Shown here: positions 23,699 to 57,303 of the stretch, piece by piece
How the letters are laid out: every line of letters begins with the position of its first letter
Numbering within the stretch: the first letter of the stretch is position 1
NCBI GenBank assembly: GCA_963715985.1
Contig: CAVQSP010000004.1
Location: 69,843-133,842 of the forward strand
Length of the DNA: 64,000 nt
Origin: an uncultured Thermoleophilia bacterium
GTDB lineage: Bacteria > Actinomycetota > Thermoleophilia > UBA2241
Direction: 5' to 3'
Notes under the pieces: generated by a model
What the model saw: the letters and a program-made list of their open reading frames with translations, nothing else
The model's database searches: none
What the model was told of the DNA's origin: nothing
Program-made: the position numbers and the translations under genes

Positions 23699-23736
23699 GT
23701 CAGCCGCCGGTTCTGTGTCAAGGAGAGGAGGTCGTG

Positions 23737-25677: not shown

Positions 25678-25690
25678 CGGCGCCACGTTA

Positions 25691-25900: not shown

Positions 25901-25995
25901 CACGCGACTCTCTTGCTCAGCGAGACTAGCGGCGCCCGACCGCGCCGTCATGACCTGAATCGGAGCCAATGACGCACCCGAATGGAGGAACGAGC

Positions 25996-30249: not shown

Positions 30250-30264
30250 GCCCCTCGGACAGGG

Positions 30265-30660: not shown

Positions 30661-30751
30661 CTGCGTGCGCGTCGGCGGTGACATGCCGCGGCTTCATACG
30701 CCGGTCGACGGATCTGCAGCGCTTCGCGCCTGGACCACCTCGGATCGACCC

Positions 30752-30817
30752 CACCCATACGGGCTACTCACGTCACTCCGGTCGGGTGTGGCCGGTGGTG
30801 TAGCGCAGCTCCATGAT
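30752..30817 (+). promoter_or_regulatory. Island promoter module copy 6 (now separated from the peptidase gene by an IS)
   Basis: CACCCATACGGGCTA at 30752, GGGTGTGG at +32, CATGAT at +60. Confidence 0.6.
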
Positions 30818-35483: not shown

Positions 35484-37253
35484 TCACTCCACGTCGCGCA
35501 GAGGCACGGAGACTTCCACGACCGTGCCGCTGCCGGGAGACGTTCGCAACTGAAGCGCACCGCCGACCAGCGCGGCCTGCTCGTCCATCATCGTCAGCCC
35601 GAAGTGATCGGCTACCGAGAGCCCCTCGAGGTCAAACCCGCAGCCATCGTCGCTGATGACCAGCCGTGCACTGGGAGCATCCCCCGGGACCGACTCTCGC
35701 CGAAGTGCGACGTGGCAGTGGCGAGCCCGGGCGTGCTTGCGCGCGTTCTGCAGCGCCTCGCGCGTGACGACGTAGAGTGCTGTGGCCATGTCGGGACTGA
35801 CTTCGGGCATCCCCTCCAGCTCGGTCTGGATCTCGATGCCGCTGTCACTGGCAAGTCGCTGCGCGAGAGCTTGCAGGGCTCCCGTCAGGCCGAGCCCATC
35901 GAGCACCGGCGGTCGGAGGTCCCAGATCACGGCGCGGGCGTCGGCGATCGACTTCTTGAGCATCGCGGCGACCACATCGAGGTCCTCCTGCTTGTCGACA
36001 TCGGTGGCGGCGCGCAGTCCCTCAACGTGGAACAGAGCGGCCACGATGGACTGCACGATGTCGTCGTGCAGCACGTTCGCGAACGTCAGTCGCTGGCGTT
36101 CGCGCAACAGAGTGATGCGATGAAGCAGATCGGTGGCTCTCGACTCGCTGCGCTCGAGGTCGAGAAAGAGGCGAGCGTTGCAGATCGCGCTGGCGGCCTG
36201 CTCGGCGACCGTCTCGGCGCGCGCGATGTCGCTGTCCGAGTACCGATCGCGGCGCGATGTCGTGTAGAGGAGAAGAGAGCCGATGAGCCCGCCTTCAGCG
36301 TGTATGGGCACGAACAGCGCGGTGCGGATGCTGAGGCGCTCCCGGTACGCGCGGTCGGCCCCGGCTCCCCACACCACGTCCTCGACGACGATGCTCCTCC
36401 GCTGGGCGAGCGCATCACGATTGCCGGGCGCGTCCTCGAAGAGCACACGCAGGCCGATGAGTACGTCGTCGGCGGGGTCGGAACAGGCGACGGCGACCAG
36501 ATCGCCGGAGTCGCTGTCGATCTCGAGCAGAAGGCAGTTGCACTCGCCCATGACACGCGCGCCGCTGTGGGCGATCTGGCGGAACGTCTGGGCCAGGTCC
36601 AGGCTCCCGGAGATAGCGCGAGCCACAGCACAGGCGGTCTCGAGCACGACCTCGCTCATGCTGGACTCGCGTGAGAGCGACGCCGTCCCGAGCGCCAGCC
36701 CCACGGCGTCGGTTATCCCGGTCAGCATCGCCACCTGCTCTGCCGAGGGCGACTCCCGGCGGTGCCGGCTGAGGACGACGAAGCCGCCCAAAGCGTGCCC
36801 CATGTACGAGGACGCGACGACGGCAGTGCCGAACCGTGGATGGCAGAGCGACTTGAGCGCCGCTTGTGCCTGGCCACGGCGCGACCCGTCCAACATCACG
36901 GTCGACGATCTCTGGGTGAGCGGGCCAAGCAGCGGATCATGGAGGTCCAGAGGCTGATAGGGGTACCCGCGCTTGCGCGTCGGACCCCACGCCGCGAGCA
37001 CCTGCGCGTCGCGGTCGCCCGTCACGCGCAGTATCGCCCCGGTGTCCATGTCCAGCGCCTCGGTGATCAAAGGCAGGACCGCACGCGACCATTCCTCCGG
37101 CCGCGCCTCACGGTTGAGTTGCGACAGCATCTCGCAGAGCAGCGCCTCGTGCCGGAACGCGCGCGGAGCGGCGTCCCCAGCCCACACGGTGGCGGCGGGC
37201 CTCAGATCTAACCCTGCCTCGGCCGAAGCCGACGTGCGCCGCAATCCAGGCAT
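35484..37253 (-). CDS. Soluble GAF-domain sensor histidine kinase (HisKA_3 type)
   Basis: LHDDIVQ H-box, LRPPVLD..GL, EALQNARKHA, DDGCGF, HFGL, PGSGT; two GAF-like N-terminal segments, no obvious TM helix. Confidence 0.88.
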   Translation of the reverse strand: MPGLRRTSASAEAGLDLRPAATVWAGDAAPRAFRHEALLCEMLSQLNREARPEEWSRAVLPLITEALDMDTGAILRVTGDRDAQVLAAWGPTRKRGYPYQPLDLHDPLLGPLTQRSSTVMLDGSRRGQAQAALKSLCHPRFGTAVVASSYMGHALGGFVVLSRHRRESPSAEQVAMLTGITDAVGLALGTASLSRESSMSEVVLETACAVARAISGSLDLAQTFRQIAHSGARVMGECNCLLLEIDSDSGDLVAVACSDPADDVLIGLRVLFEDAPGNRDALAQRRSIVVEDVVWGAGADRAYRERLSIRTALFVPIHAEGGLIGSLLLYTTSRRDRYSDSDIARAETVAEQAASAICNARLFLDLERSESRATDLLHRITLLRERQRLTFANVLHDDIVQSIVAALFHVEGLRAATDVDKQEDLDVVAAMLKKSIADARAVIWDLRPPVLDGLGLTGALQALAQRLASDSGIEIQTELEGMPEVSPDMATALYVVTREALQNARKHARARHCHVALRRESVPGDAPSARLVISDDGCGFDLEGLSVADHFGLTMMDEQAALVGGALQLRTSPGSGTVVEVSVPLRDVE

Positions 37254-37317
37254 CGTCCCTGCCGATCGGTGCGAAGTCGAGAGCAGCCAGGCCGCCCGTC
37301 CGCAACTGTAGGGCACA

Positions 37318-37323
37318 AGTATA
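37318..37323 (-). promoter_or_regulatory. Candidate -10 element (TATACT) for the kinase-regulator-permease operon
   Basis: AT-rich TATACT on the minus strand about 65 bp upstream of the kinase ATG, in GC-rich context. Confidence 0.35.
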
Positions 37324-37448
37324 CCTAGCGGCGGCGCGCGCGGTCTCGTGCCCCGGGGCGGGGGCTCGTCCAGGCAGTGCGACCTGCCCTTGGGCGTCCT
37401 TCACCAATCGCGCATCCGCGTGAGATGCTGTCCCTGCGCTGCCGCGTG

Positions 37449-37514
37449 CACCCGAACGGGTGAGTGGTCCGGTACGAGAGGGTGATGTGCCGGTTGTGGG
37501 ACTCGCCCTATCGT
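37449..37514 (+). promoter_or_regulatory. Island promoter module copy 7 (upstream of MoaD-AOR copy 2, divergent from the two-component operon)
   Basis: CACCCGAACGGGTGA at 37449, GGGTG at +31, TATCGT at +60. Confidence 0.72.
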
Positions 37515-37801
37515 CACGATACCATCTGCACTGGGGCACTTTGCACGACCATGCTCGAGGAGAAGGGAACCGAGTGGCACTACGGGGCATGGCGCCGGGT
37601 AGGGCGGGTGGATCCGGCCACATCGACTCCGATGGCGTGGCCTGTTCGCGGGCCGCTGAGGGCGGGTCGACTGGTCAGGAGCGTGTCGCGGCGTTTCGGA
37701 AGGCATGCACCACCGGCTTCACTCCTGGGTCTTCTGCGCGTCGTTCGGCGGGTAACTCGGTTCGCCGAGGGCACGACTTCCATGCGCTGTGGTTGGCTGA
37801 C

Positions 37802-38056
37802 ATGACAGATGCCAAGGCCGGCTCCACCGTCCGCGTGCTCGCGCATGGCGGACTCCTCTCACCCGACGCGGGCCACTCGCGCCATGGAACACTGAGCGCG
37901 GACCGCGGCACGACGCTCGCAGAAGCGCTGCAGTCGCTGGGCATCGACCCGGGCATCGTGGGCGTTGCGACTCAGCACGGCAAGCTCGTTCAGCTGAACG
38001 ATGTGCTGCGCGATGAGGGCGTCATCCACGTCTATCCGCTCTTCGGCGGCGGTTGA
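37802..38056 (+). CDS. MoaD/ThiS-family sulfur carrier, copy 2
   Basis: Similar to 23459 and 42821 proteins; ends YPLFGGG. Confidence 0.82.
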   Translation: MTDAKAGSTVRVLAHGGLLSPDAGHSRHGTLSADRGTTLAEALQSLGIDPGIVGVATQHGKLVQLNDVLRDEGVIHVYPLFGGG

Positions 38057-38098
38057 CATCCCTTTGCCCGTGCCACGGTCAGGGGGGGAGTAGACACA

Positions 38099-40003
38099 GT
38101 GTCCGCACAGCCGGCACCCGGAGTCTTCGGCAAGACCGTCTTCGTCGATCTCACAGCAGGCACGGTGCGCTGCACGCAAGCATCGCCGGAGTTCCATCGG
38201 CGCTTCCTCGGGGGCGCCGGGATCGCCGTCTACCAGCTTCTCCGAGACACGCGTGGCCGGGTACGGACGCGTTCGCGCCCGAGAACGTGCTGGTGTTCGC
38301 ACCGGGTCTGCTCGCGGGGACCGACAGCCCGGCCGCGCCAAGGTACGTGGTCTGCGCCGGTCACCGCTCACCGGGGCGCTGGGCAAGTCGGAGGCGGGCG
38401 GCTACTGGGGCGCAGCCCTCAAGCAAGCCGGTGTGGGAGCGCTCGTCTTCACCGGACGCGCGCCCGAACCCTTCTTACGCGCTTGTGACCCCACAGGGGG
38501 TCGAGCTCCGCAGTGCGCGGCAGGCGTGGGGACTCGCGACGGGTGAGGCCCAGGGATGGATACGGCATGACATCGGGGACGCCAAGGCGCATGTCGCCTT
38601 GATCGGCCCCGGCGGCGAGAACGGCGTCCGCTACGCCGGCATCGCCAGCGACCTCACGCACTTCAACGGCCGCAACGGTCTCGGCGCGGTGATGGGCGCG
38701 AAGAACCTGAAGGTGGTCGCTGTGAGCGGCGGCGCGCGACTGGATGTCCACGATGCTGCTCGTATCAAGGGAATCGCCCGCGAGACCGCCCGACTGTGCC
38801 GCACACACCGCCTCAGCGCAATGCTCCACGATCAGGGACACCCGCCGGGGTGGAGGCGACCAACGCCGCCGGCGCCCTGGCGACTCACAACTGGGAGTCG
38901 GCGTCGTTTGCGGCGACGGACCGGATCGGCGGGGCCATCCTCAACGGGAAGTACCTGGTCAAGCGCGGCGGGTGCTACGCGTGCCCGGTCCGCTGCAAGC
39001 GCGTGGTCGCCGTCGACGGCGACGAGATCAAGGTCGATCCACGCTACGGCGGACCGGAGTACGAGACCATCGTCGCCTTTGGCTCCAACTGTGGCCTCGA
39101 CGACTTCGAGGTCATCGCCAAGGCGAACGAGCTCTGCAACATGTACACCCTGGACACCATCTCCACGGGTATGACCGTGTCCTTCGCCATGGCCTGCTAC
39201 GAGCAAGGCCTCATCGGCTGCGAGGAGACCGGCGGACTGGACGTGCGTTTCGGCAACGGCGACGCGGTCCTCGAGCTCATCGAGCAGATCGCCCACCGGC
39301 AGGGGTTCGGCGATCTCCCGCCGAGGGCTCGGTCCGCGCGGCGGCCGCGATCGGCGGCGGTGCTGAGGCCAACGTCCTGGCCGTCAAGGGGCAGGAGATC
39401 CCGCTTCATGACCCTCGGGTGAAGACTGGCCTCGGCCTGCAATTCGCCCTGGCGCCGAACGGCGCCGATCACTGGTTCGCCCAGCACGACCCCTTGTTCG
39501 CCTCCGAGGCCAGCCCCGGCGTCGCGGCACTGGCGCCTCTCGGCCTGCGGGGGCCGGTCTCTCCTCTGGACCTGGGCCTCGAGAAGGTGCGTCTCGTGTG
39601 GCTGACCAGCGTCCTCAACAGCCTCTACGACTGCCTCGGCGTCTGCATGTTCGGCGCCGTGGCGCGCAGCATGACTCCCATCCACAGTTACGTCGAGCTC
39701 GTCGCTGCCGCCACCGGCTGGGAGACCAGCCTCCCGGAGCTGCTGCAGGCCGGCGAGCGCGCGCTGGCCATGGCGCGCATGTTCAACGTCCGCGAGGGGT
39801 TCGGTCCCGACGCCGATGCCCTGCCCTCGCGGTTCTTCGCGCCTATGGCGGACGGCCCGCTCGAGGGGAAGAACGCCATCGATCCCTCTCTCTTCGCCAC
39901 GGCAGTCGACCTGTACTACGGCATGTCGGGCTGGGATGCGGACAGCGGTGCGCCGTCTGCCGCCAAGATGGCCGAGCTCGGATTGGACGAGGTGCTCGCG
40001 TGA
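38099..40003 (+). CDS. aor: Aldehyde:ferredoxin oxidoreductase family, copy 2 (about 5 frameshifts)
   Basis: All AOR motifs present across frames: GVFGKT, SPLTGALGKSE, GAVMGAKNLK, CYACPVRC, GPEYE, DCLGVC, YYGMSGWD. Confidence 0.82.
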
Positions 40004-40090
40004 GCCGTGCGCGCGGCGCGCGCATCGTCGCCATCTGCCAGGTGCGGCTGGGCGAGGGGCCACGTCCGGGAACCGGTCCGTGGCCACGAG

Positions 40091-40118
40091 TTGACAGGAG
40101 ACGTCTCTCCACTAGGCT
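40091..40118 (+). promoter_or_regulatory. Sigma70-type promoter with a palindrome in the spacer, upstream of aminotransferase copy 2
   Basis: TTGACA (40091) - 16 bp - TAGGCT (40113); perfect palindrome GAGACGTCTC at 40098-40107. Confidence 0.55.
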
Positions 40119-40269
40119 TATCCACCTGGGCGGATAGCGGTCAGACGGAGGAGAGGGATGCTTACCCGGGTGTGAGCTGTTCGGCCGTGGCGGACGACGC
40201 CAGGGCGTGACGCATCGATGGGCGTTCAGGGAGACAGCGGTCGCCTGGCGGCGCCGCAAGGGAGGAGCC

Positions 40270-41643
40270 ATGGCAGACGACGTGCAGGCAAACGCAGGGG
40301 GCGCGCTCCAGGAGGACTTTCTCGGCCACCTCTGGCCGCCGTTCACGCAGATGCAGGGCATCAAGCCCGTGATCATGGAGCGCGCCGAGGGCTGCCTCGT
40401 CTACGACAGCGAGGGCAACGAGTACATCGACGCCTTCGCCAGCCTCTGGACGGTCAACGTCGGCCACGGCCGCACCGAGATCTACGACGCCATCAAGGCG
40501 CAGATGGAGAAGCTGGCGATCTACCACATCTTCCAGCTCGCCAACGAACCGGCCATCAAGCTGGCCGCCAAGGTGGCCGAGCTGGCCCCCGGCGACCTCG
40601 ACCACGTCTTCCTCACGCTGGGCGGCGGCGAGTCGGTGGAGACCGCCGTCAAGATGGCGCGGCAGTACTGGCGCAACAAGGGCAAGGGCACCAAGTACAT
40701 GGTGCTGTTCCGCGACCGCTCCTATCACGGCACCACCATGACCAGCACCAGCGCCCAGGGTCTCACCGTGAACCGCGCCAAGTTCGAGCCCCTGCTGCCG
40801 GGCTTCATCAAGCTCGGCGCCCCCTACTGCTACCGCTGCTTCTGGAACAAGACCTACGGCGAAGACTGCAAGATGGAGTGCGCGAAGCAGGTCGAGCAGG
40901 AGATCACCTTCTACGGCCCCGAGAACGTCGGCACCATGCTCGGCGAGACGATGATCGGCACCGGCGGCGTGATCCCGCCGCCGCCGGAGTATTGGCCGAT
41001 GGTCAACGAGATCTGCAAGGCCAACGACGTGCTCGTCATCAACGACGAGGTCATCACGGGCTTCGGGCGCAGCGGCACCTGGTTCGGCTTCGAGCAGTTC
41101 GGCTCGGACCCGGACCTCGTCACCCTCGCCAAGGGCCTCTCCAGCGGCTACCTGCCGCTCGGCGCCGTGCTGGCGCGCGACCACGTGTACGAAGCCTTCC
41201 TCGGCGGTCCCGGCGAAGCGTTCATGAGCGGCGCCACCTACATGGGTCACCCGCTGTGCTGCGCCGCCGGCCTCGCCAACCTCGAGATCGTGGTGCGCGA
41301 GAAGCTGGTGGAGCGCTGCGCCGAGGTCGGGCCCTACCTGCAGGAGGGCCTGCGCACGCTGCTCAGCCATCCCATCGTCGGCGACGTGCGCGGCGTCGGC
41401 CTGGTGGCCGGCATCGAGTACGTGCAGGACAAGGCCACGCGCGAGTGGTTCGCGCCGGCCCAGGGCGTCGCCGCCAAGATCCGCGACGAGGCCTTCAAGC
41501 GCGGCGTCTTCGTGCGCCTGCTGGGCGGCGGCCACGTGCACGCGGTCGCGCCGCCCTTCATCATCAGCAAGGAACAGATCGACACCGTGGTGCGCGTCCT
41601 CGACGAGTCCATCGGCGTCGTGGAGAAGGAGCTCGGCTACTGA
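40270..41643 (+). CDS. Class III PLP-dependent aminotransferase, copy 2
   Basis: RBS GGAGG; from HLWPPF onward only a handful of residue differences from copy 1. Confidence 0.93.
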   Translation: MADDVQANAGGALQEDFLGHLWPPFTQMQGIKPVIMERAEGCLVYDSEGNEYIDAFASLWTVNVGHGRTEIYDAIKAQMEKLAIYHIFQLANEPAIKLAAKVAELAPGDLDHVFLTLGGGESVETAVKMARQYWRNKGKGTKYMVLFRDRSYHGTTMTSTSAQGLTVNRAKFEPLLPGFIKLGAPYCYRCFWNKTYGEDCKMECAKQVEQEITFYGPENVGTMLGETMIGTGGVIPPPPEYWPMVNEICKANDVLVINDEVITGFGRSGTWFGFEQFGSDPDLVTLAKGLSSGYLPLGAVLARDHVYEAFLGGPGEAFMSGATYMGHPLCCAAGLANLEIVVREKLVERCAEVGPYLQEGLRTLLSHPIVGDVRGVGLVAGIEYVQDKATREWFAPAQGVAAKIRDEAFKRGVFVRLLGGGHVHAVAPPFIISKEQIDTVVRVLDESIGVVEKELGY

Positions 41644-41682
41644 GAGGGGCCGCGGCCCGGGACCTACAAGGAGCGAAGGATC

Positions 41683-42702
41683 ATGGCGAAGCCCAAGGTT
41701 GGTGTGGTGGGGTACGGCGTCATCGGCCAGCGTCTGGCCGACGGTGTGGCGCTGCAGGAGGACATGGAGCTGGTCGGCGTCGTGGACGTCGCTCCCACGC
41801 TCTCCACACGCGCCCTCTGCGAGTCGGGCATGCCCTACGACCTGTACGTGGTGGAGGCCGGGCAGAAGGCCGCCTTCGACGCGTGCGGCATCCCGGTGAC
41901 CGGCACCATGGACGACCTGCTCGGCACGGTCGACATCGTGCTCGACTCCTCGCCCGGCGGCGTGGGCCGCAAGAACAAGGAGCTCTACCAGGCCAGGGGC
42001 GTGAAGGCGATCTTCCAGGGCGGCGAGAAGAACGACATCGTGGACGTCTTCTTCCACGGCTACGCGAACTACGAGAAGGGCGTCGGCAAGGACTACCTCA
42101 AGCTGACGAGCTGCAACACCACCGGCCTCATCCGCGCCGTGGACTGCCTCGACCGCGAGGTCGGCGTGGAGCGCGTCATCGTCACCATCGTGCGTCGCGT
42201 CGCCGACCCCGGCGACACGCACCGCGGGCTCGTGGACGTGGCCCAGGTCGAGCCCGTGCCGAACCACCAGGCCGTCGACCTCATGACCATCATGCCGCAC
42301 ATCGAGGCCACCGGCCTGCTCGTGCACGTGCCCACCACGCACGGTCACATCATCAACGTGATCGCCACGACCAAGGCGGACATCAGCAAGGAGCGGGCGC
42401 TCGAGCTGTTCGAGGCCCACCCGCGCATCCGCAACGTCAAGATCGCCGACGGCTTCAACAGCAACGCGGCGCTCTTCCGCTACGCCCGCGACCTCGGCCA
42501 CAAGCGCGCCGACATGTACGACATCGCCGTGTTCGACGAGACCATCGCCAAGAGCGGCCGCGAGTTCATGTTCGCGATCAACATCCCGCAGGAGTCGGTC
42601 GTGATCCCCGAGACGGTGGACGGCATCCGCGCGGCGCTCAGTATGCAGACCGACCGTCTCGAGGCCGTCGGCCTGACGAACACGTACCTCGGCCTGGCCT
42701 GA
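41683..42702 (+). CDS. gap: Archaeal-type (class II) phosphorylating glyceraldehyde-3-phosphate dehydrogenase homolog
   Basis: GYGVIGQRLADGVALQEDM, IFQGGEK, catalytic SCNTTGL, RRVADP, QESVVIPETVDGIRA are class II signatures. Confidence 0.88.
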   Translation: MAKPKVGVVGYGVIGQRLADGVALQEDMELVGVVDVAPTLSTRALCESGMPYDLYVVEAGQKAAFDACGIPVTGTMDDLLGTVDIVLDSSPGGVGRKNKELYQARGVKAIFQGGEKNDIVDVFFHGYANYEKGVGKDYLKLTSCNTTGLIRAVDCLDREVGVERVIVTIVRRVADPGDTHRGLVDVAQVEPVPNHQAVDLMTIMPHIEATGLLVHVPTTHGHIINVIATTKADISKERALELFEAHPRIRNVKIADGFNSNAALFRYARDLGHKRADMYDIAVFDETIAKSGREFMFAINIPQESVVIPETVDGIRAALSMQTDRLEAVGLTNTYLGLA

Positions 42703-42820
42703 CGGGCGGGATGCTGTGAGGTGACGGCGTGTAGAGGCTCGGCGTGCGTCGCCGAACGAGGCGCTGCTCCCTCGGCCTTCGATCGAAAGCGGCTACGGCC
42801 CGCGTAAGAGAGTGACTGTC

Positions 42821-43060
42821 ATGAGCCCAGAGATACGAGTGATCACCCATGGCGGTCTCCCGCGTCCTGGGCGGATGGACTCGTCGGAGGGCACGATAGT
42901 CGTGGGCCTCGGCGCGACGCTGGCGGATGTCCTGAGATCGCTCGGGATCGACACGGGCCTGGTGGGAGTAGCCGCCATGGACGGCAGGATCGTCGAGCTG
43001 GATGCCGTTCTGAAGAGTGATGGTGTCATCCACGTCTATCCGATCTTCGGTGGAGGGTGA
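42821..43060 (+). CDS. MoaD/ThiS-family sulfur carrier, copy 3
   Basis: Ends YPIFGGG; close paralog of 23459..23698. Confidence 0.82.
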   Translation: MSPEIRVITHGGLPRPGRMDSSEGTIVVGLGATLADVLRSLGIDTGLVGVAAMDGRIVELDAVLKSDGVIHVYPIFGGG

Positions 43061-43097
43061 GAGCCCACCACCAGTCGAGTGTCATGGAGAGGTGTTC

Positions 43098-45005
43098 TTG
43101 CTGTCTGCTCGAGAACCAGTAGGGGTGTTCGGCAAGACCGTCTGGGTCGACCTCACTTCGGGCTTGGTCCGCGATGTCGAGGAGACACCGGAGCACCATC
43201 GGCGCTTCCTTGGCGGTGCGGGGGCCGCGGTCCACAAGCTCTTGCGACATCTGCGGCCGGGCACGGATGCGCTTGCCCCGGGGAACGTCCTCGTTTTCGC
43301 GCCGGGTCTACTCGCGGGGACGCTGAGTCCGGCAACGCCGCGATATGTGGCCTGTGCACGCTCGCCTCTTACCGGGGCGCTGGGCAAGTCCGAGTCCAGC
43401 GGCTACTGGGGACCAGAGCTGAAGCACGCCGGCGTTGGCGTGCTCGTCGTGACCGGCCGGGCGGCTGAGCCGTCCTACCTCCTCGTTACGGTCGATGGGG
43501 TCGAGATACGCGATGCTTCGCGAGCTTGGGGCCTTCCCACGGGAGAGGCAGAGGACATCATCCGGGAGGAAGTCGGGGATCCGCGAGTGCGCGTCGCGAT
43601 CATCGGACCGGGAGGCGAGAACTGCGTCCGCTACGCCGGCATCGCCAGCGATCTCACCCACTTCAACGGCCGGAACGGCCTCGGTGCGGTGATGGGTTCG
43701 AAGAACCTGAAGGCCGTTGCCGTTCGTGGGGGCTCGCGACTCGAGGTCCACGACCGAGAGCGCATCAAGGGAATAGCTCGGTCGACGGCACGCCTGTGTC
43801 GGGAGCATCCGCTCAGTAGCATGCTCCACAAGAACGGCACGCCCGCGGGCGTGGAGATCACCAACGCCGGAGGCTCTCTCGCGACCCGCAACTGGCAGAA
43901 TGCGACGTTCGAGGCGGCTGACAAGACCGGCGGCGACGTCCTCAATGGACAGTACCTCGTCAAGCGTGATGGGTGTTTCGCGTGTCCGGTCCAGTGCAAA
44001 CGGGTGGTCGCCGTCGACAGCGAGAACGTCCACGTCGACGAGCGTTACGGCGGGCCCGAGTACGAGACGCTGGTGGCCTTCGGGTCCAACTGCGGCGTAG
44101 CTGACTTCGAGCTTGTCGCCAAGGCCAACGAGCTCTGCAACATGTTCACTCTGGACACCATCTCGACCGGGATGAGCATCTCGTTCGCGATGGCCTGCTT
44201 TGAAGCGGGCATCATTGGGCGCGAAGACACGGGCGGCCTTGACGTGCGCTTCGGGGACGGCGACGTGATGCTCTCCCTGATCGACCAGATCGCCCATCGG
44301 CAGGGCTTCGGGGACCTCCTGGCCGAGGGCACCGTGCGCGCGGCCGAAACCATCGGCCGCGGCGCCGACGCGCACGTCTTGGCCGTCAAGGGGCAGGAGC
44401 TGCCCTTCCAGGATCCCCGGGTGAAGACCGGCTTGGGCTTGCAGTTCGCCTTGGCTCCGAACGGCGCAGACCACTGGTTTGCGCAGCATGATCCCCTGTA
44501 CGGCACGGAAGAGAGTCCCGGAGTGGCTGCGCTTGCCCCCATCGGGATACTGAGTCCGGTGTCGCCCCTCGACCTCGGTCCGGCGAAAGTGCGTGCCATC
44601 AGGCAGACCAGCGTCTTGAACAGCCTGTACGACTGTCTCGGTGTCTGCGTCTTCGGAGCGGTCGCGCGGAGCATGACGAGCATCAACAGTTACGTTGATC
44701 TCGTCTCGGCGGCGACGGGGTGGGAGACGAGTCTGTGGGAGCTGATGCAAGCGGGCGAACGCGCCTTGGCCATGTCCCGGATCTTCACTGTGCGCGAAGG
44801 ATTCGGTCCGAGTGCCGACACTCTGCCCCCCCTGTTCTTCACGCCGTTCGCCGATGGTCCCCTGGCCGGCCAGAACGCTCTTGATCCAGACGAGTTCGCG
44901 GAGGCCGTTCGCCTCTACTACGGGATGTCTGGATGGGATCCGGATTCGGGCCTGCCTACAGCCGGCAAGATGGCCGAGCTCGGCTTGGACGGGGTGTTTG
45001 CGTGA
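43098..45005 (+). CDS. aor: Aldehyde:ferredoxin oxidoreductase family, copy 3
   Basis: Same motifs as copy 1 (CFACPVQC, GPEYE, LDTISTG, DCLGVC); start approximate. Confidence 0.9.
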   Translation: MLSAREPVGVFGKTVWVDLTSGLVRDVEETPEHHRRFLGGAGAAVHKLLRHLRPGTDALAPGNVLVFAPGLLAGTLSPATPRYVACARSPLTGALGKSESSGYWGPELKHAGVGVLVVTGRAAEPSYLLVTVDGVEIRDASRAWGLPTGEAEDIIREEVGDPRVRVAIIGPGGENCVRYAGIASDLTHFNGRNGLGAVMGSKNLKAVAVRGGSRLEVHDRERIKGIARSTARLCREHPLSSMLHKNGTPAGVEITNAGGSLATRNWQNATFEAADKTGGDVLNGQYLVKRDGCFACPVQCKRVVAVDSENVHVDERYGGPEYETLVAFGSNCGVADFELVAKANELCNMFTLDTISTGMSISFAMACFEAGIIGREDTGGLDVRFGDGDVMLSLIDQIAHRQGFGDLLAEGTVRAAETIGRGADAHVLAVKGQELPFQDPRVKTGLGLQFALAPNGADHWFAQHDPLYGTEESPGVAALAPIGILSPVSPLDLGPAKVRAIRQTSVLNSLYDCLGVCVFGAVARSMTSINSYVDLVSAATGWETSLWELMQAGERALAMSRIFTVREGFGPSADTLPPLFFTPFADGPLAGQNALDPDEFAEAVRLYYGMSGWDPDSGLPTAGKMAELGLDGVFA

Positions 45006-45042
45006 CACGTGAGTCGAGGCATGCTCCTGCAACGGCTGCCGG

Positions 45043-45100
45043 CTCGGCCGCGAGCCCAGCGATGTGTACGACATCGCCGTCTTCGACGAGACCATCACCA
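45043..45100 (+). repeat. Relic copy of a GAPDH internal segment immediately upstream of pgk
   Basis: 45061 GATGTGTACGACATCGCCGTCTTCGACGAGACCATCACCA vs 42511 GACATGTACGACATCGCCGTGTTCGACGAGACCATCGCCA. Confidence 0.75.
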
Positions 45101-45126
45101 CAGAGCACTGACCGGAGGGGGCGGCC

Positions 45127-46398
45127 GTGAAGTACGGCATCAACACGCTCGATGACTTCGCCTGGGGCGGCAGGACCGTGCTGTGCCGCGTGGACATCAA
45201 CGCGCCGCTCGACCCGGCCACGGGCGGGCTGCGCGACATCACGCGGCTCGAAGGCTGCGCGCCCACGGTCCGCGAGCTCGCGGAGGCGGGCGCCCGGGTC
45301 GTGCTGCTCGCCCACCAGGGCGGCGACCTGGAGTACCACAACTACGCCTCCACCGAGCCGCACGCGGCGGTGATGAGCGAGCTCATCGGGCGCCCCGTGC
45401 GGTTCGTCGACGACGTCTGCGGGCCGGCCGCGCGCGACGCGGTCGGCCGGCTCGCCGACGGCGAGGTGCTGCTCCTCGACAACGTGCGCTTCTGCGGCGA
45501 GGAGCTCACGCTCTTCGAGACGAAGCTCAACCTCTCGCCGGAGGACCAGGCGAAGACGCTGGTGGTGCGCAAGCTGGCGCCGCTCGCCGACCTCTACGTC
45601 TGCGACGCCTTCGCCGCCGCGCACCGCTCGCAGCCTACGCTGGTCGGCTTCGAGCAGCTGCTGCCGTCCGCCATGGGCCGGCTCTTCGAGAAGGAGTACG
45701 CCAACCTGGCGCACCTGCGCGAGGACCCGGCCCGGCCCTGCGTCTTCCTGCTCGGCGGCACCAAGATCCAGGAGGCGTTCCCCATGATGGCCGCCGCCCT
45801 GCGCGACGGCGTGGTGGACACGGTGCTCACCGCCGGCCTCGTGGCGAACGTCATGCTGGCCGCGAGCGGCGTGGACATCGGGGCGCCGTCGATGGACTTC
45901 ATCCGCGCCAGCCAGCTCGAGAAGTTCGTGGACGAGTCGAAGGCCATCCTGGCCGAGCACGGGGACAAGGTCGTGCTGCCCGCCGACCTCGCCTTCGTGA
46001 AGGATGGCGCGCGGGTGGAGGTCCCGGTCGTCGACCTGCCGGTGGACGAGCAGCTCGTGGACCTCGGGCGCGCGGCGGTGGCGGAGTACGAGCAGGCCAT
46101 CGCCGCGGCCGGCACGGTCTTCGTCAACGGGCCCGCCGGCGTGTTCGAACAGCCGCAGACCGAGTACGGCACGAAGGCCCTGTGGGAGGCCATGGCCGGC
46201 GCGCCTGCATTCAGCGCCCTCGGCGGTGGCGACAGCGTCGCGGCCATGAACCGCTTCGGGCTGGCCGGACGCTTCGACTACGTGTGCACGGCAGGGGGCG
46301 CCATGGTGCAGTTTCTGAGCGGCAAGCCCATGCCCGTCATCGAGGCGCTCAAGGCGTCGGCCGCGCGGGCGGCTGCCGCGGATGCGGTGAGCTCCTGA
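45127..46398 (+). CDS. pgk: Phosphoglycerate kinase homolog (archaeal-like)
   Basis: CRVDINAP, DITR, AHQG, LLDNVRF, DAFAAAHRS, LGGTK, NGPAGVFE, GGGDS, TAGGA. Confidence 0.88.
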   Translation: MKYGINTLDDFAWGGRTVLCRVDINAPLDPATGGLRDITRLEGCAPTVRELAEAGARVVLLAHQGGDLEYHNYASTEPHAAVMSELIGRPVRFVDDVCGPAARDAVGRLADGEVLLLDNVRFCGEELTLFETKLNLSPEDQAKTLVVRKLAPLADLYVCDAFAAAHRSQPTLVGFEQLLPSAMGRLFEKEYANLAHLREDPARPCVFLLGGTKIQEAFPMMAAALRDGVVDTVLTAGLVANVMLAASGVDIGAPSMDFIRASQLEKFVDESKAILAEHGDKVVLPADLAFVKDGARVEVPVVDLPVDEQLVDLGRAAVAEYEQAIAAAGTVFVNGPAGVFEQPQTEYGTKALWEAMAGAPAFSALGGGDSVAAMNRFGLAGRFDYVCTAGGAMVQFLSGKPMPVIEALKASAARAAAADAVSS

Positions 46399-47030
46399 CG
46401 GGTACCCAGGTCATTCCGGCTCTCCTGCCGCACCGCACGGCGTTCCTCGCCGTGGACCTGCAGAGCTGCTTCGTCGCGGACTCGCCGGTGGCCGCGCCGG
46501 AGGGCCTGGTCGTGCTCGCGCAGGTCAACCGGCTCGCGGCGGCCTGCCGCGAGGCCGGCGTGCTCGTCGTGCACACGCAGTTCGTGCTCGCGCCCGGCGG
46601 CGCGGACCTCGGCGTGCTCGCCTGGACGTCGCCGCCGGCGCGGGACGGTCTCCTCGACCGGGGCGGCCCCGCGGCCGCACTGCACCCGGACCTCGTCGTC
46701 GACCCCGAACGTGACGTGCTCATCGAGAAGCCCCGCTTCGGCGCCTTCTACCGCACGGGGCTGCACGGGCTGTTGCTCGAGCGCGGCATCGACACCGTGG
46801 TCATCGGCGGCCTGCTCACCAACATCTGCTGCGAGACGACGGCGCGAGAGGCCGCGGTGAGGGACTTCGCCGTGTACTTCCTCAGCGACGGCACCGCCAC
46901 CACGGCCATGGGCGGCGCGACCGCCGCCGAGCTGCAGAAAGCCACGCTGGCGACGCTCGGCTTCCTCTTCGCGCGCGTGCTCACGGTGGACGAGACACTC
47001 ACGGCGATCCGCGCCGCGAGGCCGCTGTGA
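46395..47030 (+). CDS. Isochorismatase-family cysteine hydrolase
   Basis: D-K-C triad: VDLQ, EKPRFGAF, TNICCETTAR; start uncertain. Confidence 0.82.
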   Translation: MTGTQVIPALLPHRTAFLAVDLQSCFVADSPVAAPEGLVVLAQVNRLAAACREAGVLVVHTQFVLAPGGADLGVLAWTSPPARDGLLDRGGPAAALHPDLVVDPERDVLIEKPRFGAFYRTGLHGLLLERGIDTVVIGGLLTNICCETTAREAAVRDFAVYFLSDGTATTAMGGATAAELQKATLATLGFLFARVLTVDETLTAIRAARPL

Positions 47031-48340
47031 GCGGCCGCGACGAGGCGGCCGTCTGCGGCCTCGCCTACGGCCACGAGGAGCTGGAGCTCCACGTGCCGCG
47101 CCGCAACCTCGTGGACATCGTGCGGCCGCGGCAGTCTGCACCTGCGCCCGCCTCGGTGGACGAGGAGCTCGCGTTCGTGCGTGCCGCGCTGGCCGCGCCC
47201 GTCGGCACGCCGTCGCTGCGCGAGCTGGCCGCCGGAGCCGGCTCGGCCGCGATCGTGGTCAGCGACGTCACGCGCCCGTGCCCCACGTACAGGTTCCTGC
47301 ACCTCGTGCTCGCCGAGCTGGAGGCCATCGACCCGGCGCGCGTGACCATCCTGTTCGCGCTGGGCAGCCACCGCCTGCACACCGACGAGGAGCGCCGCCG
47401 GCTCGTCGGCGACGCCGTCTTCGAGCGCTACCCGTGCCTCGACCTCGACGAGGATGACTGCGTGCTCGTCGGCCACACCTCCCGCGGCACGCCGCTCGAG
47501 GTCTTCCGGCCCTACGTGGAGGCCGACCTCAGGGTCTGCACCGGCAACCTCGAGTATCACTACTTCGCCGGCTACAGCGGCGGCGCCAAGGCGGTGATGC
47601 CGGGCATCTGCCGGCGCAGCGCCATCCAGCCCAACCACAGCATGATGCTGGAGCCGGCGGCCAGGGCCGGCATCCTGCGCGGCAACCCCGTGCGCGACGA
47701 CATCGACGAGGCCGGCGGCCTGGTGGGCGTGGACTTCATCGTCAACGTGCTGCTCAACGAGAAGAAGCAGATCGTGGACTGCGTGACGGGGCACTACCTG
47801 GAGGCGCACGCCGAGGGCGTGCGCCGCTACGACGAGCTCTTCGACATGCGCATCGACGAGGCCGTGGACGTGGTGGTGGCCTCGCCGGGAGGCAGCCCCA
47901 AGGACATCAACCTGTACCAGGCGCAGAAGACGCTCGACAACGTGGCCGGCGCCGTGCGCGAGGGCGGCACCATCATCCTCGTGGCGCAGTGCGCGGAGGG
48001 CTTCGGCGAGGAGACGTTCGCGGAGTGGATGGGCGACATGGAGAACCCGCGCGCGGTGGTCGCCCGTATCCGCCGCGAGTTCGTGCTCGGCGGCCACAAG
48101 GCGGCGGCCATCGCCGGCCTGCTCACCGCCGCCGACGTGTGCCTCGTCTCCGAGTTCCCCGACGACGTGGTGCGCAGGATGGGCTTCCGGCCGTTCGCCA
48201 CCGTGGACGAGGCCGTGGCCGCGGCGCTCGCGCGGTACGGCGACGGCGCGCGCGTGCTCGTGGTGCCGCACGGCAGCCGGGTGACGGCGCCGCGGGCGGT
48301 GCCGCCGCCTGACGGCCCCGCGGGCGGAGCCGATGCCTGA
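47027..48340 (+). CDS. larA: LarA-family nickel-pincer 2-hydroxy acid racemase/epimerase
   Basis: SDVTRPCP, ALGSHR, HYFAGYSGGAKAVMPG, PKDINLYQAQK, C-terminal VVPHG; GTGA overlap. Confidence 0.87.
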   Translation: MSGRDEAAVCGLAYGHEELELHVPRRNLVDIVRPRQSAPAPASVDEELAFVRAALAAPVGTPSLRELAAGAGSAAIVVSDVTRPCPTYRFLHLVLAELEAIDPARVTILFALGSHRLHTDEERRRLVGDAVFERYPCLDLDEDDCVLVGHTSRGTPLEVFRPYVEADLRVCTGNLEYHYFAGYSGGAKAVMPGICRRSAIQPNHSMMLEPAARAGILRGNPVRDDIDEAGGLVGVDFIVNVLLNEKKQIVDCVTGHYLEAHAEGVRRYDELFDMRIDEAVDVVVASPGGSPKDINLYQAQKTLDNVAGAVREGGTIILVAQCAEGFGEETFAEWMGDMENPRAVVARIRREFVLGGHKAAAIAGLLTAADVCLVSEFPDDVVRRMGFRPFATVDEAVAAALARYGDGARVLVVPHGSRVTAPRAVPPPDGPAGGADA

Positions 48341-48465
48341 CGGCGCCGAACTGCCGGCCTGAGCGCAGGCGCGGTGCCGGCGCCCGAAGCCCACGGGCGC
48401 CGCTCACCGGCCTCGATCGCTGTTGGGGCTGGTCCCGACCCGGCGGATGCGCTACGTTGACCGGC

Positions 48466-48861
48466 ATGAGCATCTTCACGCGCCTCTTCAACCGGTACAG
48501 CGGGTACGACGAGCTGGCGGCTCGCTTCCCCGGCGGACCCGAGCCGCAGGGGGCGCGCTGGGACCGGCAGCACGTGGCCTTCCCCCACTCGATGCGCTAC
48601 CGCTGGTGCGTGACCATCGTCGTGACGCCGGAGGGCCTCTGGCTGCAGGCGCGACCGCCGGCGCAGGGCGTACAGGCCGCCATCATGGTGCCGTGGGCGG
48701 CCATGGTGCGGGTCGAACCGACGCGGCTGTACTGGATGCAGGCGGCGCGGATCACCTGCGGGGAGCCCGCGGTCGGGCGCGTCACGGTGTTGCGGCCCGT
48801 GTGGGAGGCCGCGGCGGTGTACTGGCGGGCGGCGCAGCCGCAGGCAGCCGGGCCGTCCTGA
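48466..48861 (+). CDS. Hypothetical protein
   Basis: Open frame with GC3-biased codons between larA and the YgbA-like gene. Confidence 0.55.
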   Translation: MSIFTRLFNRYSGYDELAARFPGGPEPQGARWDRQHVAFPHSMRYRWCVTIVVTPEGLWLQARPPAQGVQAAIMVPWAAMVRVEPTRLYWMQAARITCGEPAVGRVTVLRPVWEAAAVYWRAAQPQAAGPS

Positions 48862-48905
48862 CTTCAGTCAAGGCGGCGCCCGCGCACCACTGGTATGTGT
48901 AGGTC

Positions 48906-49247
48906 ATGGCCGACCGACGCCCTCCCAGACGGCTCGCGCGCGAACAGCACACCATCGAGGCGATGATCGCCATGTACTGCCACGACCACCACGCCGTGGC
49001 CCGCGGCGACGTGTGCCCTGCGTGTGCCGCGCTGATGGACTACGCGCGCGTGCGGCTCGACACGTGCCGCTACGGCACCGAGAAGCCCACCTGCGCCACC
49101 TGCCCCACGCACTGCTACAAGCCGGTCATGCGCGAGCGCGTGCGCGAGGTGATGCGCTACAGCGGGCCGCGCATGCTCAAGCGTCACCCGGTGCTGGCCG
49201 TCGCGCATCTCGTGGACGGCCGGCGCCCCGCGCCGGACGAAGGCTGA
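48906..49247 (+). CDS. YgbA / nitrous oxide-stimulated promoter family protein
   Basis: REQHTIEAMIAMYC, CPAC, KPTCATCPTHCYKP, VMRYSGPRML..HP. Confidence 0.85.
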   Translation: MADRRPPRRLAREQHTIEAMIAMYCHDHHAVARGDVCPACAALMDYARVRLDTCRYGTEKPTCATCPTHCYKPVMRERVREVMRYSGPRMLKRHPVLAVAHLVDGRRPAPDEG

Positions 49248-49338
49248 GGCGGCGCGGGGGCTCTTCGGGGCGGCCGCGGGATGAGGACGGCGCGGGGTCC
49301 GGCAGGCCGCCGGCCGGCGGCCGCGTGCCCGGCGCCGC

Positions 49339-50463
49339 TCAGACGTCCGCGTCCATCTCGCAGGCGGCGCGCACGACGCCCGCCTGCGCCTCGAGCTCCA
49401 CGGCGCTGAGCTCGTCCTTGCGGACGCGGCCGTACCGCCGCACGTGCAGGAAGTAGGCCACGGCGCCGGTGGGCATGGGGAGCCAGTACGAGGCGAGGCG
49501 GTAGATGAGCGTGGCCAGCAGCGCCTGGTCGGTGCCGATGCCGGCCAGGCCGAGCGTGCCCACCAGCCCGGCCTCCACGAAGCCGAGGCCGCCCGGGCGT
49601 GATGGGGATCATGCCGAGGAAGGCCGCCACGACGTAGGCCAGGAGCACGACCGAGGCGCGCGGCTGCGCGCCCACGGCGGCGAGCGCGATGATCAGCGCC
49701 GTGAGGTCGAGGAGCCAGTTGCCGGCGCTGTACAGCAGCGCCTTCCACCAGCCCGCCCCGAGCACGCGGCGCACCAGGTCGCGCTCGTCCACGAGGTGGG
49801 CCGGGAAGCCGCTCATGGGCGCGCGCTTCTTGAGCAGGCGGTTGTGGACGCGCTGAATGGCCGCGCCCAGCCACTCCAGGGGGCGGTCGGCGAACAGCAG
49901 CACCGCCCCCCCCGCGAGCGCCACGCAACACGCCAGGACGGCGATAGAGCCCACGCGGAACAGGTTGCGCTCCACCGGGGCGCCGGTGACGAGGATGACG
50001 ACGATGCTGATCACAGGGCAGGCCGAGCAGGGTGGAGGTGGAGATGAGCGAGACGGCGGTGACGCTGGTGGCCGCCCGCGTGGTGGCGATGCCTGCCTGC
50101 CTGAGCATGTCGAACTGCATGGCGCCGCCGGCGGCGGCGCCGCCCGGCACGATGCGGCTCACGGCGTTGCCTGCCAGCTGCGCGGTGGCCACGGGGAACC
50201 ACGGCTTGGCGCCCAGAGCCAGGCGCAGCAGCCCCCAGATGCACATGAAGCTGAGCAGCTCCGCCGCGACGATGGGGATGCCCCAGAGCGGGTTGACCGT
50301 GGCCAGCAGCGGCCCGGCCGAGAAGACCTTGGCCAGGCTGGGCCAGACCACGTAGAGGCCGAGCGCCGTCACCCCGAGGAGCACGATGCGCTTGATGATC
50401 GTGTAGCGCCCGCGCGAGCGGACGGCGCGGACCTGGACCCTGAGGCGGCTGATCTGGAGGCAC
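49339..50463 (-). CDS. Lysylphosphatidylglycerol synthase TM / flippase-like membrane protein (frameshifted)
   Basis: GNAVSRIVPGGAAAG, MIPITPG, EAGLVGTL, IYRLASYWLP across frames; directly downstream of cls. Confidence 0.75.
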
Positions 50464-56960: not shown

Positions 56961-57303
56961 ATGTACGTGCGGATCTCCCGCTTCGAGGGCGGGGACATGG
57001 ATGAGATCGAGGCCGAGGCGGCCTTGATGCGCGACGGGCTCGCGGCGTACCGCCGCGGTGAGACGTCGCGCGAGTTGCCGGCGCGGCTGGCCGAAGTCAC
57101 GCGCCGGGTGGAGTTGCTGGTCGACCGCCAGAAAAGCGAGGTCGTCGTGAGCGTGTACTGCGCCTCACGCGAGTGACGTGCACGAGGCCGACGCGATCCT
57201 CTCCGGGATGTCGCCGAGGAACAAGGGCTGGGGACGGCGCGTTGCCGTCGACATCTACGAGGTGGCGCTGGACGAGTCCACCGGGGACGGAGGCTCGGCC
57301 TAG
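56961..57303 (+). CDS. Hypothetical protein (frameshift near 57172)
   Basis: RBS GGAGG, MYVRISRFEG...; continues EADAILSGMSP...VDIYEVALD in another frame. Confidence 0.5.

Follow-up and report, generated by a model that had tools for sequence, protein, structure and literature searches.

A paralogous type II GAPDH and PGK in bacteria, linked to malate racemases: a possible natural malyl-phosphate module

Introduction

The type II form of glyceraldehyde-3-phosphate dehydrogenase (GAPDH; structures 2CZC and 1CF2) and the corresponding phosphoglycerate kinase (PGK; 2CUN) are archaeal enzymes. Here we discuss a row of seven genes in a stretch of 64,000 nucleotides (hereafter the window) from an uncultured Thermoleophilia bacterium, in which paralogues of both enzymes stand together with a LarA homologue of the malate-racemase type. 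The GAPDH paralogue, named GAP2 here, and the PGK paralogue share with the archaeal proteins the folds and the families, and GAP2 also keeps the SCNTT motif and the positions conserved at 85% or more. We read the two adjacent genes as a couple turning an aldehyde via an acyl phosphate into an acid and ATP. The pair differs in being a bacterial second copy beside a class I gap-pgk-tpi set and in its link to malate enzymes, and its motifs are altered, from SHH to NHQ in GAP2 and from HQGKP to HQG(G/D)D in PGK.

Two described routes come close to the chemistry that we propose for this pair. In Acinetobacter baumannii, L-carnitine is degraded to malic semialdehyde, then to D-malate and on to pyruvate with a beta-decarboxylating D-malate dehydrogenase; the route depends on an O2-dependent Rieske oxygenase, uses a non-phosphorylating aldehyde dehydrogenase and gains no ATP (PMC11353897). 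The proposed intermediates, the D enantiomer and the Iso_dh family (found at 11 of 80 loci of the module) would be common to both, whereas the module would obtain its aldehyde from a transaminase or a transketolase, oxidize it with phosphorylation and pass the product to a Ni-pincer racemase and malic enzyme. The second route is the synthetic malyl-phosphate pathway of Walther et al. (2017; PMC5481828). It uses the same triad of malate, malyl phosphate and malate semialdehyde, again with a kinase and a phosphorylating semialdehyde dehydrogenase. The pathway is engineered, runs in the reductive direction, activates the 4-carboxyl group (malyl-4-phosphate, 2-hydroxy-4-oxobutanoate) and is built on aspartate kinase and aspartate-semialdehyde dehydrogenase folds, and its authors described such activities and intermediates as previously unreported. 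The module would instead activate the 1-carboxyl group beside the hydroxyl, on GAPDH and PGK folds and in the oxidative direction.

Other parts of the system also have described counterparts. Canonical myo-inositol catabolism employs IolG, E, D, B, C, J and A; IolG, IolE, IolD and the IolB family recur in some rows of the module, but an aldolase was not seen in these rows, which hold a split transketolase, GAP2, PGK, LarA and malic enzyme instead. Anaerobic use of inositol has been described via the kinase/aldolase route (PMC13311982). The tungsten enzyme aldehyde:ferredoxin oxidoreductase (AOR), known from P. furiosus (1AOR) and Aromatoleum (8C0Z), has the same two-domain build as the AOR of the window, which differs by its insertion within the GAPDH-PGK pair and by its presence in three copies, two intact and one frame-shifted. 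For the LarA of the window, the malate racemase Mar2 and its family LarAH6 (PDB 6D6Z; PMC7583248, PMC11770544) are the best solved match and the best family, with Q-K and (G)HK in common, although the protein scores below the NCBIfam cut-off and has a loop HYF where Mar2 has HYK. GAPDH, PGK, transketolase and inositol are not mentioned in the main texts of PMC7583248 and PMC11770544. A literature search, whose coverage left out most subscription journals, gave no link of type II GAPDH or PGK to LarA, transketolase, inositol or malate semialdehyde. The enzymes belong to known families; the novelty lies in the substrate that we propose, in what the enzymes would do in the pathways and in how constantly they are associated.

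Results

The window (G000:C4:69843-133842, G+C about 68%) is part of a bin of 4.35 Mb in 22 contigs, 88.8% complete and 7.3% contaminated. A first-pass annotation, made by a model from the sequence, had described a co-directional cluster of seven genes, and all seven were found as placed, consecutive on the + strand between 40207 and 48340. They encode a class III (omega-amine:pyruvate type) aminotransferase (40207-41643; Pfam PF00202, 313.9 bits), GAP2 (41683-42702; NF003251, 391 bits), a ThiS/MoaD-like small protein of 82 residues (42812-43060; PF02597, 22.5 bits), a tungsten/molybdenum AOR (43017-45005; AFOR_N 213.9 and AFOR_C 397.6 bits), the archaeal-type PGK paralogue (45127-46398; PF00162, 344.2 bits), an isochorismatase-family (cysteine) hydrolase (46395-47030; PF00857, 120.7 bits) and the LarA homologue of the malate-racemase (LarAH6/Mar2) type (47027-48340; Lar_N 198 bits). 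The overlaps noted earlier among the last three genes are of 4 nucleotides (GTGA) each, at PGK/hydrolase and at hydrolase/LarA.

The genome has its own canonical enzymes elsewhere. A class I GAPDH (Gp_dh_C, 222.6 bits), a canonical PGK and triosephosphate isomerase (TIM) stand together on contig C20, and the canonical PGK reaches 492.2 bits with PF00162 as compared with 344.2 bits for the PGK of the window. The TIM match on C20 is the sole one in the genome, in agreement with the earlier remark that the locus lacks this enzyme. The first-pass annotation had made its non-glycolytic reading depend on a separate class I gap-pgk-tpi set, and such a set is what C20 carries. Since class I gap, pgk and tpi are present elsewhere in the genome, GAP2 and PGK are additional copies. 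The same picture emerged from 10 further genomes tested that carry the module, each with a canonical PGK of 495-567 bits besides a module PGK of 339-379 bits; Clostridium magnum even has two module copies. In the loci examined, tpi was not seen beside GAP2-PGK. GAP2 and PGK very probably constitute an accessory, non-glycolytic module. On C20, the canonical PGK and TIM matches lie within one open frame of 689 residues (G000:C20:151040-152977), which could represent a pgk-tpi fusion like that of Thermotoga or merely a long frame in G+C-rich DNA. Similar long PGK/TIM open frames of 652-696 residues were seen in G004, G005 and G010.

GAP2 scores above both family cut-offs (NF003251, 391 versus 185 bits; TIGR01546, 304.7 versus 232.9 bits), and its clade retains 28 of 28 positions at which at least 85% of 72 outgroup type II GAPDHs agree, including the cysteine of SCNTT (S143, C144, N145). 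Fixed changes of the clade are H196Q (SHH to NHQ), S/T123F, T/S211G, A213L, T261N and H302P. The second histidine of SHH is Q in 100% of the clade and H in 60 of 72 outgroup rows. Identity amounts to 63-96% inside the clade and to 42% at most with the next full-length representative; in a set of 1.84 billion representatives of clusters at 50% identity, only two full-length ones matched at 67-69%, and the next full-length one at 41-42%. A FastTree analysis took in 76 rows of the clade and 24 of 72 from the outgroup, after removal of rows below 300 residues and of two thirds of the outgroup. It placed the GAP2 clade on a long stem with a support of 100, values being SH-like only; a single outgroup row with a long branch joined at the base of the clade. 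Of the GAP2s linked to an aminotransferase, 13 of 14 were nested among the transketolase-linked ones.

The PGK of the window covers positions 1-379 of PF00162, that is both domains, and has 2CUN as its best solved match (281.5 bits). Compared with this one solved archaeal sequence and the canonical PGK of the genome, the motif HQG(K/R)P or SHLGRP has become HQG(G/D)D across the clade, with G in the window and D or G in 73 module PGKs, while the basic residues R of RVD, DxTR, NVRF and AHR are retained. The homologues retrieved by a protein search were all close relatives, at least 81% identical to it, with no outgroup among them and, where named, all called phosphoglycerate kinase. The altered histidine of SHH in GAP2 and the altered arginine or lysine of HLGRP/HQGKP in PGK presumably line the distal-phosphate site of the respective enzyme.

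Relatives of GAP2 are widespread. A scan with one genome per species yielded at least 554 of them, so that the GAPDH-II/PGK core is not special to the window. Neighborhoods were counted at the best 80 loci (67-96% identity), which belong to Actinomycetota, Chloroflexota, Bacillota, Atribacterota, Aminicenantes, Planctomycetota, Synergistota and others. Partners were counted by tblastn, with representative proteins as queries against these loci, many of which are incomplete; Pfam/NCBIfam neighbor scans covered 25 loci (125 open reading frames at 12 loci, 61 at 6 and 53 at 7). PGK was found at 74 of the 80 loci, LarA at 39, the C-terminal half of transketolase at 29 and its N-terminal half at 23, class III transaminase at 22, malic enzyme at 14, the MttB family at 13 and the Iso_dh family (D-malate/tartrate dehydrogenase) at 11. 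Where at least 1400 nucleotides are available downstream (69 loci), PGK starts no more than 350 nucleotides from GAP2 in 66 cases. At 42 well-flanked loci (at least 5 kb downstream and 3 kb upstream), LarA, malic enzyme or Iso_dh was present in 34, and transketolase or class III transaminase in 33. The linkage of the transaminase to GAPDH-II, on which the first reading had leaned, is kept in close relatives: the transaminase stands directly upstream on the same strand in 17 of 20 loci with a GAP2 identity of 80% or more.

The row of C. magnum (L043) reads sugar ABC transporter, malic enzyme, GAP2, PGK, transketolase N half, transketolase C half, IolB, IolD, IolE, IolG, LarA, with IolD, IolE and IolG exceeding their equivalog cut-offs. 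A kinase, an aldolase or another aldehyde dehydrogenase was not found in the 18 kb examined, and IolC above its cut-off was absent from 5 of 5 genomes with such an iol-transketolase row. Because IolC, kinase, aldolase and other aldehyde dehydrogenases are lacking, a non-phosphorylated C4 aldehyde would have to be oxidized, and GAP2 is the sole candidate for it in the L043 row. Parts like those of L043 recur in L039 and L053, and the iol row was also seen in Lachnospiraceae loci. C. magnum DSM 2767 (L043, L047) is a cultured acetogen with two malic enzyme-GAP2-PGK-LarA copies, one of them inside the iolBDEG-transketolase row. In L036, L037 and L022, GAP2 is directly preceded by Iso_dh, which in L022 scores 516 against a tartrate dehydrogenase cut-off of 470. 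L046 and L051 combine UxaE with dehydrogenases.

For LarA, the malate racemase LarAH6 was the best family for 13 of 13 module LarAs from other loci, 8 of which exceed its cut-off, and likewise for the LarA of the window. The latter matched Mar2 (6D6Z) with 360.4 bits, as opposed to about 200 for lactate racemases. The regions that confer substrate recognition in LarA proteins are the loop after the catalytic His, the Q before the catalytic K, and the K of GHK (PMC7583248). They read HYF, QK and GGHK in the window, so Q-K and H-K are as in Mar2. The loop HYF occurs in 38 of 41 rows from other loci, including those above the cut-off; the other three are one HYM, one HYFV and one spurious open reading frame. 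For synthesis of the cofactor, contig C13 encodes a LarC family protein (PF01969), whose match is split into pieces of 173.8 and 131.2 bits.

The aminotransferase scores below every NCBIfam equivalog or subfamily cut-off (best PRK07480, 455.3 versus 510), its best solved relatives being class III, putrescine, polyamine:pyruvate and 4-aminobutyrate transaminases; sequence alone does not assign its substrate. The MoaD-like protein ends in GGG and reaches 22.5 bits, exactly the Pfam cut-off and thus a weak match. A small MoaD-like gene presumably also accompanies the bacterial AOR in the aor operon of Aromatoleum. AOR has its best solved match in 1AOR (377.9 bits over residues 36-657) and only 25.6 bits with the GAPOR model, whose cut-off is 1300. 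Its true start is probably later than 43017, because the AFOR domain begins at residue 39. The hydrolase has weak NCBIfam matches only (best BiuH, 65.6 versus 370), and it fell into no family at E≤1e-20.

These three genes had been taken for members of the core. A MoaD-AOR cassette between GAP2 and PGK, or a hydrolase between PGK and LarA, was found in none of the 80 loci; by tblastn, neither MoaD nor the isochorismatase-family hydrolase occurs at any of them, and AOR is nearby in 3 (L064, L041, L035). MoaD-AOR and the hydrolase are lineage-specific inserts. A GAP2-like remnant between AOR and PGK (45061-45111, + strand), with the translation DVYDIAVFDETI... against DMYDIAVFDETI inside GAP2, a resemblance read directly from the letters, is probably a scar of the arrival of MoaD-AOR. 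In the Atribacterota locus L064, two AOR genes (5866-9853) lie directly upstream of GAP2-PGK. The association of AOR with GAP2-PGK recurs independently but rarely.

The insert-bearing order is spanned by short-read contigs that come from other metagenomes of wetlands and soils: GAP2-MoaD in X1 record 4 and X19 record 9, AOR-PGK in X2 record 21 (just 31 letters inside PGK), PGK-hydrolase-LarA in X1 record 7, PGK-hydrolase in X19 record 14, and hydrolase-LarA in X19 record 15 and X21 record 30. Other contigs of X21 and X1 fuse GAP2 directly to PGK (about 42700 to 45125). Because independent contigs bridge its junctions, the gene order is no assembly artefact, and forms with and without the insert between GAP2 and PGK occur in the same habitats.

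A partial duplicate of the row, copy A, lies upstream on the + strand. It comprises an aminotransferase (21890-23263; 96.7% nucleotide identity to 40300-41716, Pfam 310.9 bits), GAP2 remnants (23301-23410; 34 nucleotides of the 5' end, one internal and one 3' piece, from blastn against the window and L007), an intact MoaD-like gene that also ends in GGG (23459-23698, inside a block 23451-25835 of 82.5% identity), an intact AOR of 660 residues (23695-25677; AFOR_N 221.1 and AFOR_C 390.5 bits) and PGK remnants (25740-25908). Block 23451-25835 covers the first 95 or so nucleotides of PGK, and remnant 25809-25908 matches 45338-45438 at 80% (blastn). The order aminotransferase-GAP2-MoaD-AOR-PGK, as read from these copies, is older than the duplication. 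In copy A the aminotransferase, MoaD and AOR are intact, and GAP2 and PGK are lost. Since the phosphorylating branch was lost there yet transaminase and AOR were kept, AOR may oxidize the same aldehyde; this fits a parallel route, as the first-pass annotation had envisaged with its alternative AOR branch. A third AOR, spread over three reading frames (37901-39990, + strand; 72.5% nucleotide identity to the AOR of copy A), lies directly upstream of the seven-gene row and is either a pseudogene or affected by assembly indels, contig cover being patchy there. Behind copy A follow a gene of the histidinol dehydrogenase family (25969-27276; hisD domain model, 441 bits) and a malic-enzyme fragment (27540-27983, + strand; tblastn 88% identity, residues 15-162 of 519). 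The fragment corresponds to the malic enzyme after LarA in the relative L010; a full malic enzyme (81%) is encoded upstream on the contig of the window (G000:C4:14668-16218). The hisD-like gene, between copy A and this fragment and away from any his genes seen, may serve to oxidize another amino alcohol or diol.

A peptide/opine-type ABC transporter and a non-pyrrolysine MttB-family methyltransferase (20-7015, + strand; Pfam) are syntenic with L007, L016 and L020 at 68-74% nucleotide identity. In the relatives this block stands directly upstream of the transaminase, in the window 33 kb away; the region is rearranged and contains a transposase fragment. Matches to the MTTB family number 89 in the genome, and several of them carry one in-frame TAG; there are also genes of the Dimeth_Pyl type and a PylS C-terminal domain (316.5 bits, cut-off 178). 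Because of these MTTB matches, in-frame TAG codons and the PylS domain, the organism is probably a methylated-amine specialist that reads TAG as pyrrolysine. Further upstream on contig C4 there is a TetR-MttB(TAG)-MtbB(TAG) set. Methylamine and pyrrolysine sites were seen at 5486-7015 of the window, at G000:C4:32092-34940 and at G000:C13:559328-560053. In L010, two corrinoid proteins accompany the methyltransferases and the aminotransferase-GAP2-PGK-LarA row. Downstream of the module in L007 (14994-16934) and L016 (15803-19028), opposite-strand genes of the acetyl-CoA hydrolase/transferase and HpaB families were seen, families which we take to include 4-hydroxybutyrate CoA-transferase and 4-hydroxybutyryl-CoA dehydratase; this hints at GABA-type metabolism next door.

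No Rfam match was obtained between 20000 and 49000 at permissive thresholds, thus no Moco or other riboswitch ahead of MoaD-AOR, and a promoter/terminator scan of 37000-49500 gave no signal beyond shuffled expectation. Elsewhere in the window, a row at 16035-21738 encodes an ADP-forming acyl-CoA synthetase, an SDR, a beta-keto-acid cleavage enzyme (BKACE; best match Kce, 216.8 bits, under the cut-off) and, in two separate frames, a protein of the 3-hydroxyacyl-CoA-dehydrogenase type. This row, which closely precedes the second aminotransferase, may be a further unit for the catabolism of amino acids or betaines. Domains were found in two frames for that 3HCDH gene (20817-21738), for a stretch with malic enzyme, FAD-binding and succinate-dehydrogenase-flavoprotein matches (27522-30803), for an LPG-synthase-like gene (48864-50384) and for an EamA transporter (57300-59215). 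A PLP-dependent decarboxylase (52846-54234; 264.7 bits), a HepT-like/nucleotidyltransferase pair of the toxin-antitoxin type (59283-60264) and the DUF772 transposase fragment (31689-32159) complete the inventory.

Discussion

From the observed gene identities, paralogy, conserved linkage and motif changes we infer every substrate and reaction considered below. The best explanation, to which we give a probability of about 55%, is that the module converts malate semialdehyde to malate with a gain of ATP. Its substrate would belong to the 2-hydroxy-aldehydes with a distal carboxylate, the likeliest being D-malate semialdehyde (3-hydroxy-4-oxobutanoate). This compound is glyceraldehyde 3-phosphate (G3P) with a carboxylate replacing the phosphate ester and has the same D-configuration at C2. 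GAP2 would oxidize it to malyl phosphate, a mixed anhydride, with reduction of NAD(P)+, and the PGK paralogue would transfer the phosphate to ADP, yielding D-malate and ATP. A LarA of the Mar2 type would then turn D-malate into L-malate, which malic enzyme would convert to pyruvate. Because the aldehyde has the D-configuration and the product would be D-malate, either a racemase with malic enzyme or a D-specific decarboxylating dehydrogenase would be needed, and both sets of partners were seen. The general scheme of the first-pass annotation, from amine via aldehyde and acyl phosphate to acid and ATP, is in line with these comparative data, as is its idea that LarA balances enantiomers; its three-carbon substrates fail on the partners.

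The aldehyde could arise in two ways. In Thermoleophilia, the class III transaminase would form it from 4-amino-3-hydroxybutyrate and pyruvate, malic enzyme would regenerate pyruvate as acceptor, and glutamate dehydrogenase genes downstream in L007, L016 and L019 could free the nitrogen. In other phyla, the split transketolase would act on 5-dehydro-2-deoxy-gluconate, which IolG, E, D and B would supply. The keto end of 5-dehydro-2-deoxy-D-gluconate is D-threo like that of normal transketolase donors. It follows by inference that the aldehyde derived from (R)-carnitine and that from transketolase would both be D-2-hydroxy compounds, matching D-G3P. D-malate semialdehyde is the only aldehyde common to the iol-transketolase, transaminase and carnitine contexts, which points to it as the substrate; for the carnitine route of A. 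baumannii this intermediate has been demonstrated by experiment (PMC11353897). If true, the transketolase route of inositol breakdown would spare the ATP used by IolC and gain one. The MoaD-AOR cassette would add a ferredoxin-linked oxidation of the same aldehyde in parallel.

We are less sure about the further parts. That the amine in the window is 4-amino-3-hydroxybutyrate falls just short of even odds. Tentative, too, is the wider proposal that many phyla have a natural malyl-phosphate module which supplies malate racemases with D-malate and underlies two undescribed O2-independent pathways. One of these would be a variant route from myo-inositol that relies on transketolase and bypasses IolC, IolJ and IolA. 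The second, in pyrrolysine-using Thermoleophilia, would be a breakdown of 4-amino-3-hydroxybutyrate, possibly from carnitine after corrinoid-dependent demethylation, with pyruvate cycling between transaminase and malic enzyme. Fully demethylated carnitine is 4-amino-3-hydroxybutyrate, and carnitine is an attractive source because the organism appears to be a methylated-amine specialist. Methylated amines of the carnitine type would be imported and demethylated by products of the neighboring ABC and MttB-family genes. Nevertheless, we regard derivation of the amine from carnitine-type compounds as doubtful. A stepwise removal of the methyl groups of carnitine by three successive demethylases (MttB, MtbB and corrinoid genes of L010 and L021) was also considered and was lowered to speculation.

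Several observations weigh against this interpretation. Read through one TAG each, the genes at L010:4444-7236 and L021:6823-9916 score as ordinary full-length methyltransferases for trimethylamine (714-721 versus a cut-off of 525) and dimethylamine (467-510 versus 369), which suits use of the free amines more than a gradual demethylation of an amine in bound form. Since the genome has 89 MTTB matches, an MttB gene near any given locus is not rare and therefore weak evidence; the 20 close loci share descent and are not independent. Eight of the 42 well-flanked loci lack LarA, malic enzyme and Iso_dh alike, and the pair is without catabolic context in the gut Clostridia L071, L080 and L081 (six of eight examined; L078 and L028 were left out). 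The LarA of the window reaches 490.6 bits with NF052593, 9.4 bits under the cut-off of 500, and several neighboring genes in the window are frame-shifted, reflecting either an error-prone assembly or a decaying region. GAP2 keeps all strongly conserved type II GAPDH residues, including the RR of vRRvADP, and PGK keeps three of the four basic residues that presumably bind the phosphate of 3-phosphoglycerate. Because these residues are kept, GAP2 and PGK may act on G3P and 1,3-bisphosphoglycerate.

Both proteins indeed pass or approach the true GAPDH-II and PGK family models, and in the three gut Clostridia loci the pair stands without a catabolic partner, as would be expected of ordinary isoenzymes which add lower-glycolytic or gluconeogenic capacity, for example around the G3P of transketolase. 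We consider this quite unlikely, given that a canonical PGK was already present in 11 of 11 genomes tested and that the clade is sharply separate (42% identity or less), with fixed changes in its anion-site motifs. Isoenzymes would also leave unexplained why the pair is so constantly accompanied by malate racemase, malic enzyme or D-malate dehydrogenase, why it is linked to the transaminase, and why the iol-transketolase rows hold no other aldehyde-oxidizing enzyme. Unlikely as well, but a closer relative of our proposal, is a broader or different C4/C5 substrate, such as tartrate semialdehyde or other 2-hydroxy-aldehydo-acids made from keto-uronates by transketolase, malate being one of several products. 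The tagaturonate/fructuronate epimerase UxaE (3 of 80 loci) and the L-tartrate dehydratase subunits (one locus, L073) speak for it and against malate as the only product. The Iso_dh partners that score as tartrate dehydrogenase point the same way, as does the epimerization of tartrate by malate racemases as a side activity (PMC11770544). On the other hand, malic enzyme is the commoner partner (14 loci), the iolBDEG and transaminase contexts lead to a deoxy C4 aldehyde, and a 2,3-dihydroxy amine as precursor is less obvious for the window.

The first-pass annotation had favored three-carbon compounds: 1-amino-2-propanol, an aminopropanediol or its phosphate, or a sulfonate analogue, which would yield lactaldehyde, G3P or sulfolactaldehyde and, in the end, lactate, glycerate phosphate or sulfolactate to be racemized by LarA. 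The chemistry would be equally possible for GAPDH and PGK, sulfolactaldehyde is also an analogue of G3P, and relatives of LarA racemize lactate and glycerate (PMC11770544). However, the LarA resembles Mar2 (360 bits) far more than lactate racemases (about 200 bits), and the conserved partners, namely malate-racemase LarA, malic enzyme and tartrate/D-malate dehydrogenase, lead to C4 malate. Genes for sulfoquinovose, sulfonate or propanediol use did not appear in the 25 neighbor-scanned loci, and lactaldehyde would offer no anionic tail to the retained basic residues. Taken together, this makes the three-carbon version improbable. Archaeal type II GAPDH and PGK serve in gluconeogenesis, and the steps are reversible in principle, so one might think of a biosynthetic use, in which malate would be converted via malyl phosphate and malate semialdehyde into 4-amino-3-hydroxybutyrate and further into compounds resembling carnitine, on the model of aspartate kinase and aspartate-semialdehyde dehydrogenase. 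Yet the contexts are catabolic (uptake systems, LacI, AraC and TetR regulators, iol genes, demethylases, malic enzyme) and AOR, as a neighbor or replacement, is normally oxidative, for which reason we hold this direction to be highly improbable.

Conclusion

Oxidation of malate semialdehyde to malate with conservation of ATP accounts best for the GAP2-PGK pair and its company. The searches gave hundreds to thousands of relatives of the two proteins, which bear the names 'type II GAPDH' or 'phosphoglycerate kinase' wherever they are named. If the proposal holds true, thousands of bacterial genes so called would be mis-assigned, and malyl-1-phosphate would join the short list of acyl phosphates that serve substrate-level ATP synthesis. 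Natural enzymes for malate, malyl phosphate and malate semialdehyde would be of direct interest for metabolic engineering, as the synthetic pathway had to engineer them (PMC5481828). Anaerobes would have an ATP-positive route for inositol, and an O2-independent breakdown of 4-amino-3-hydroxybutyrate or carnitine, without release of trimethylamine by an oxygenase, would become testable. All in all, the module would also explain the wide spread of malate racemases.

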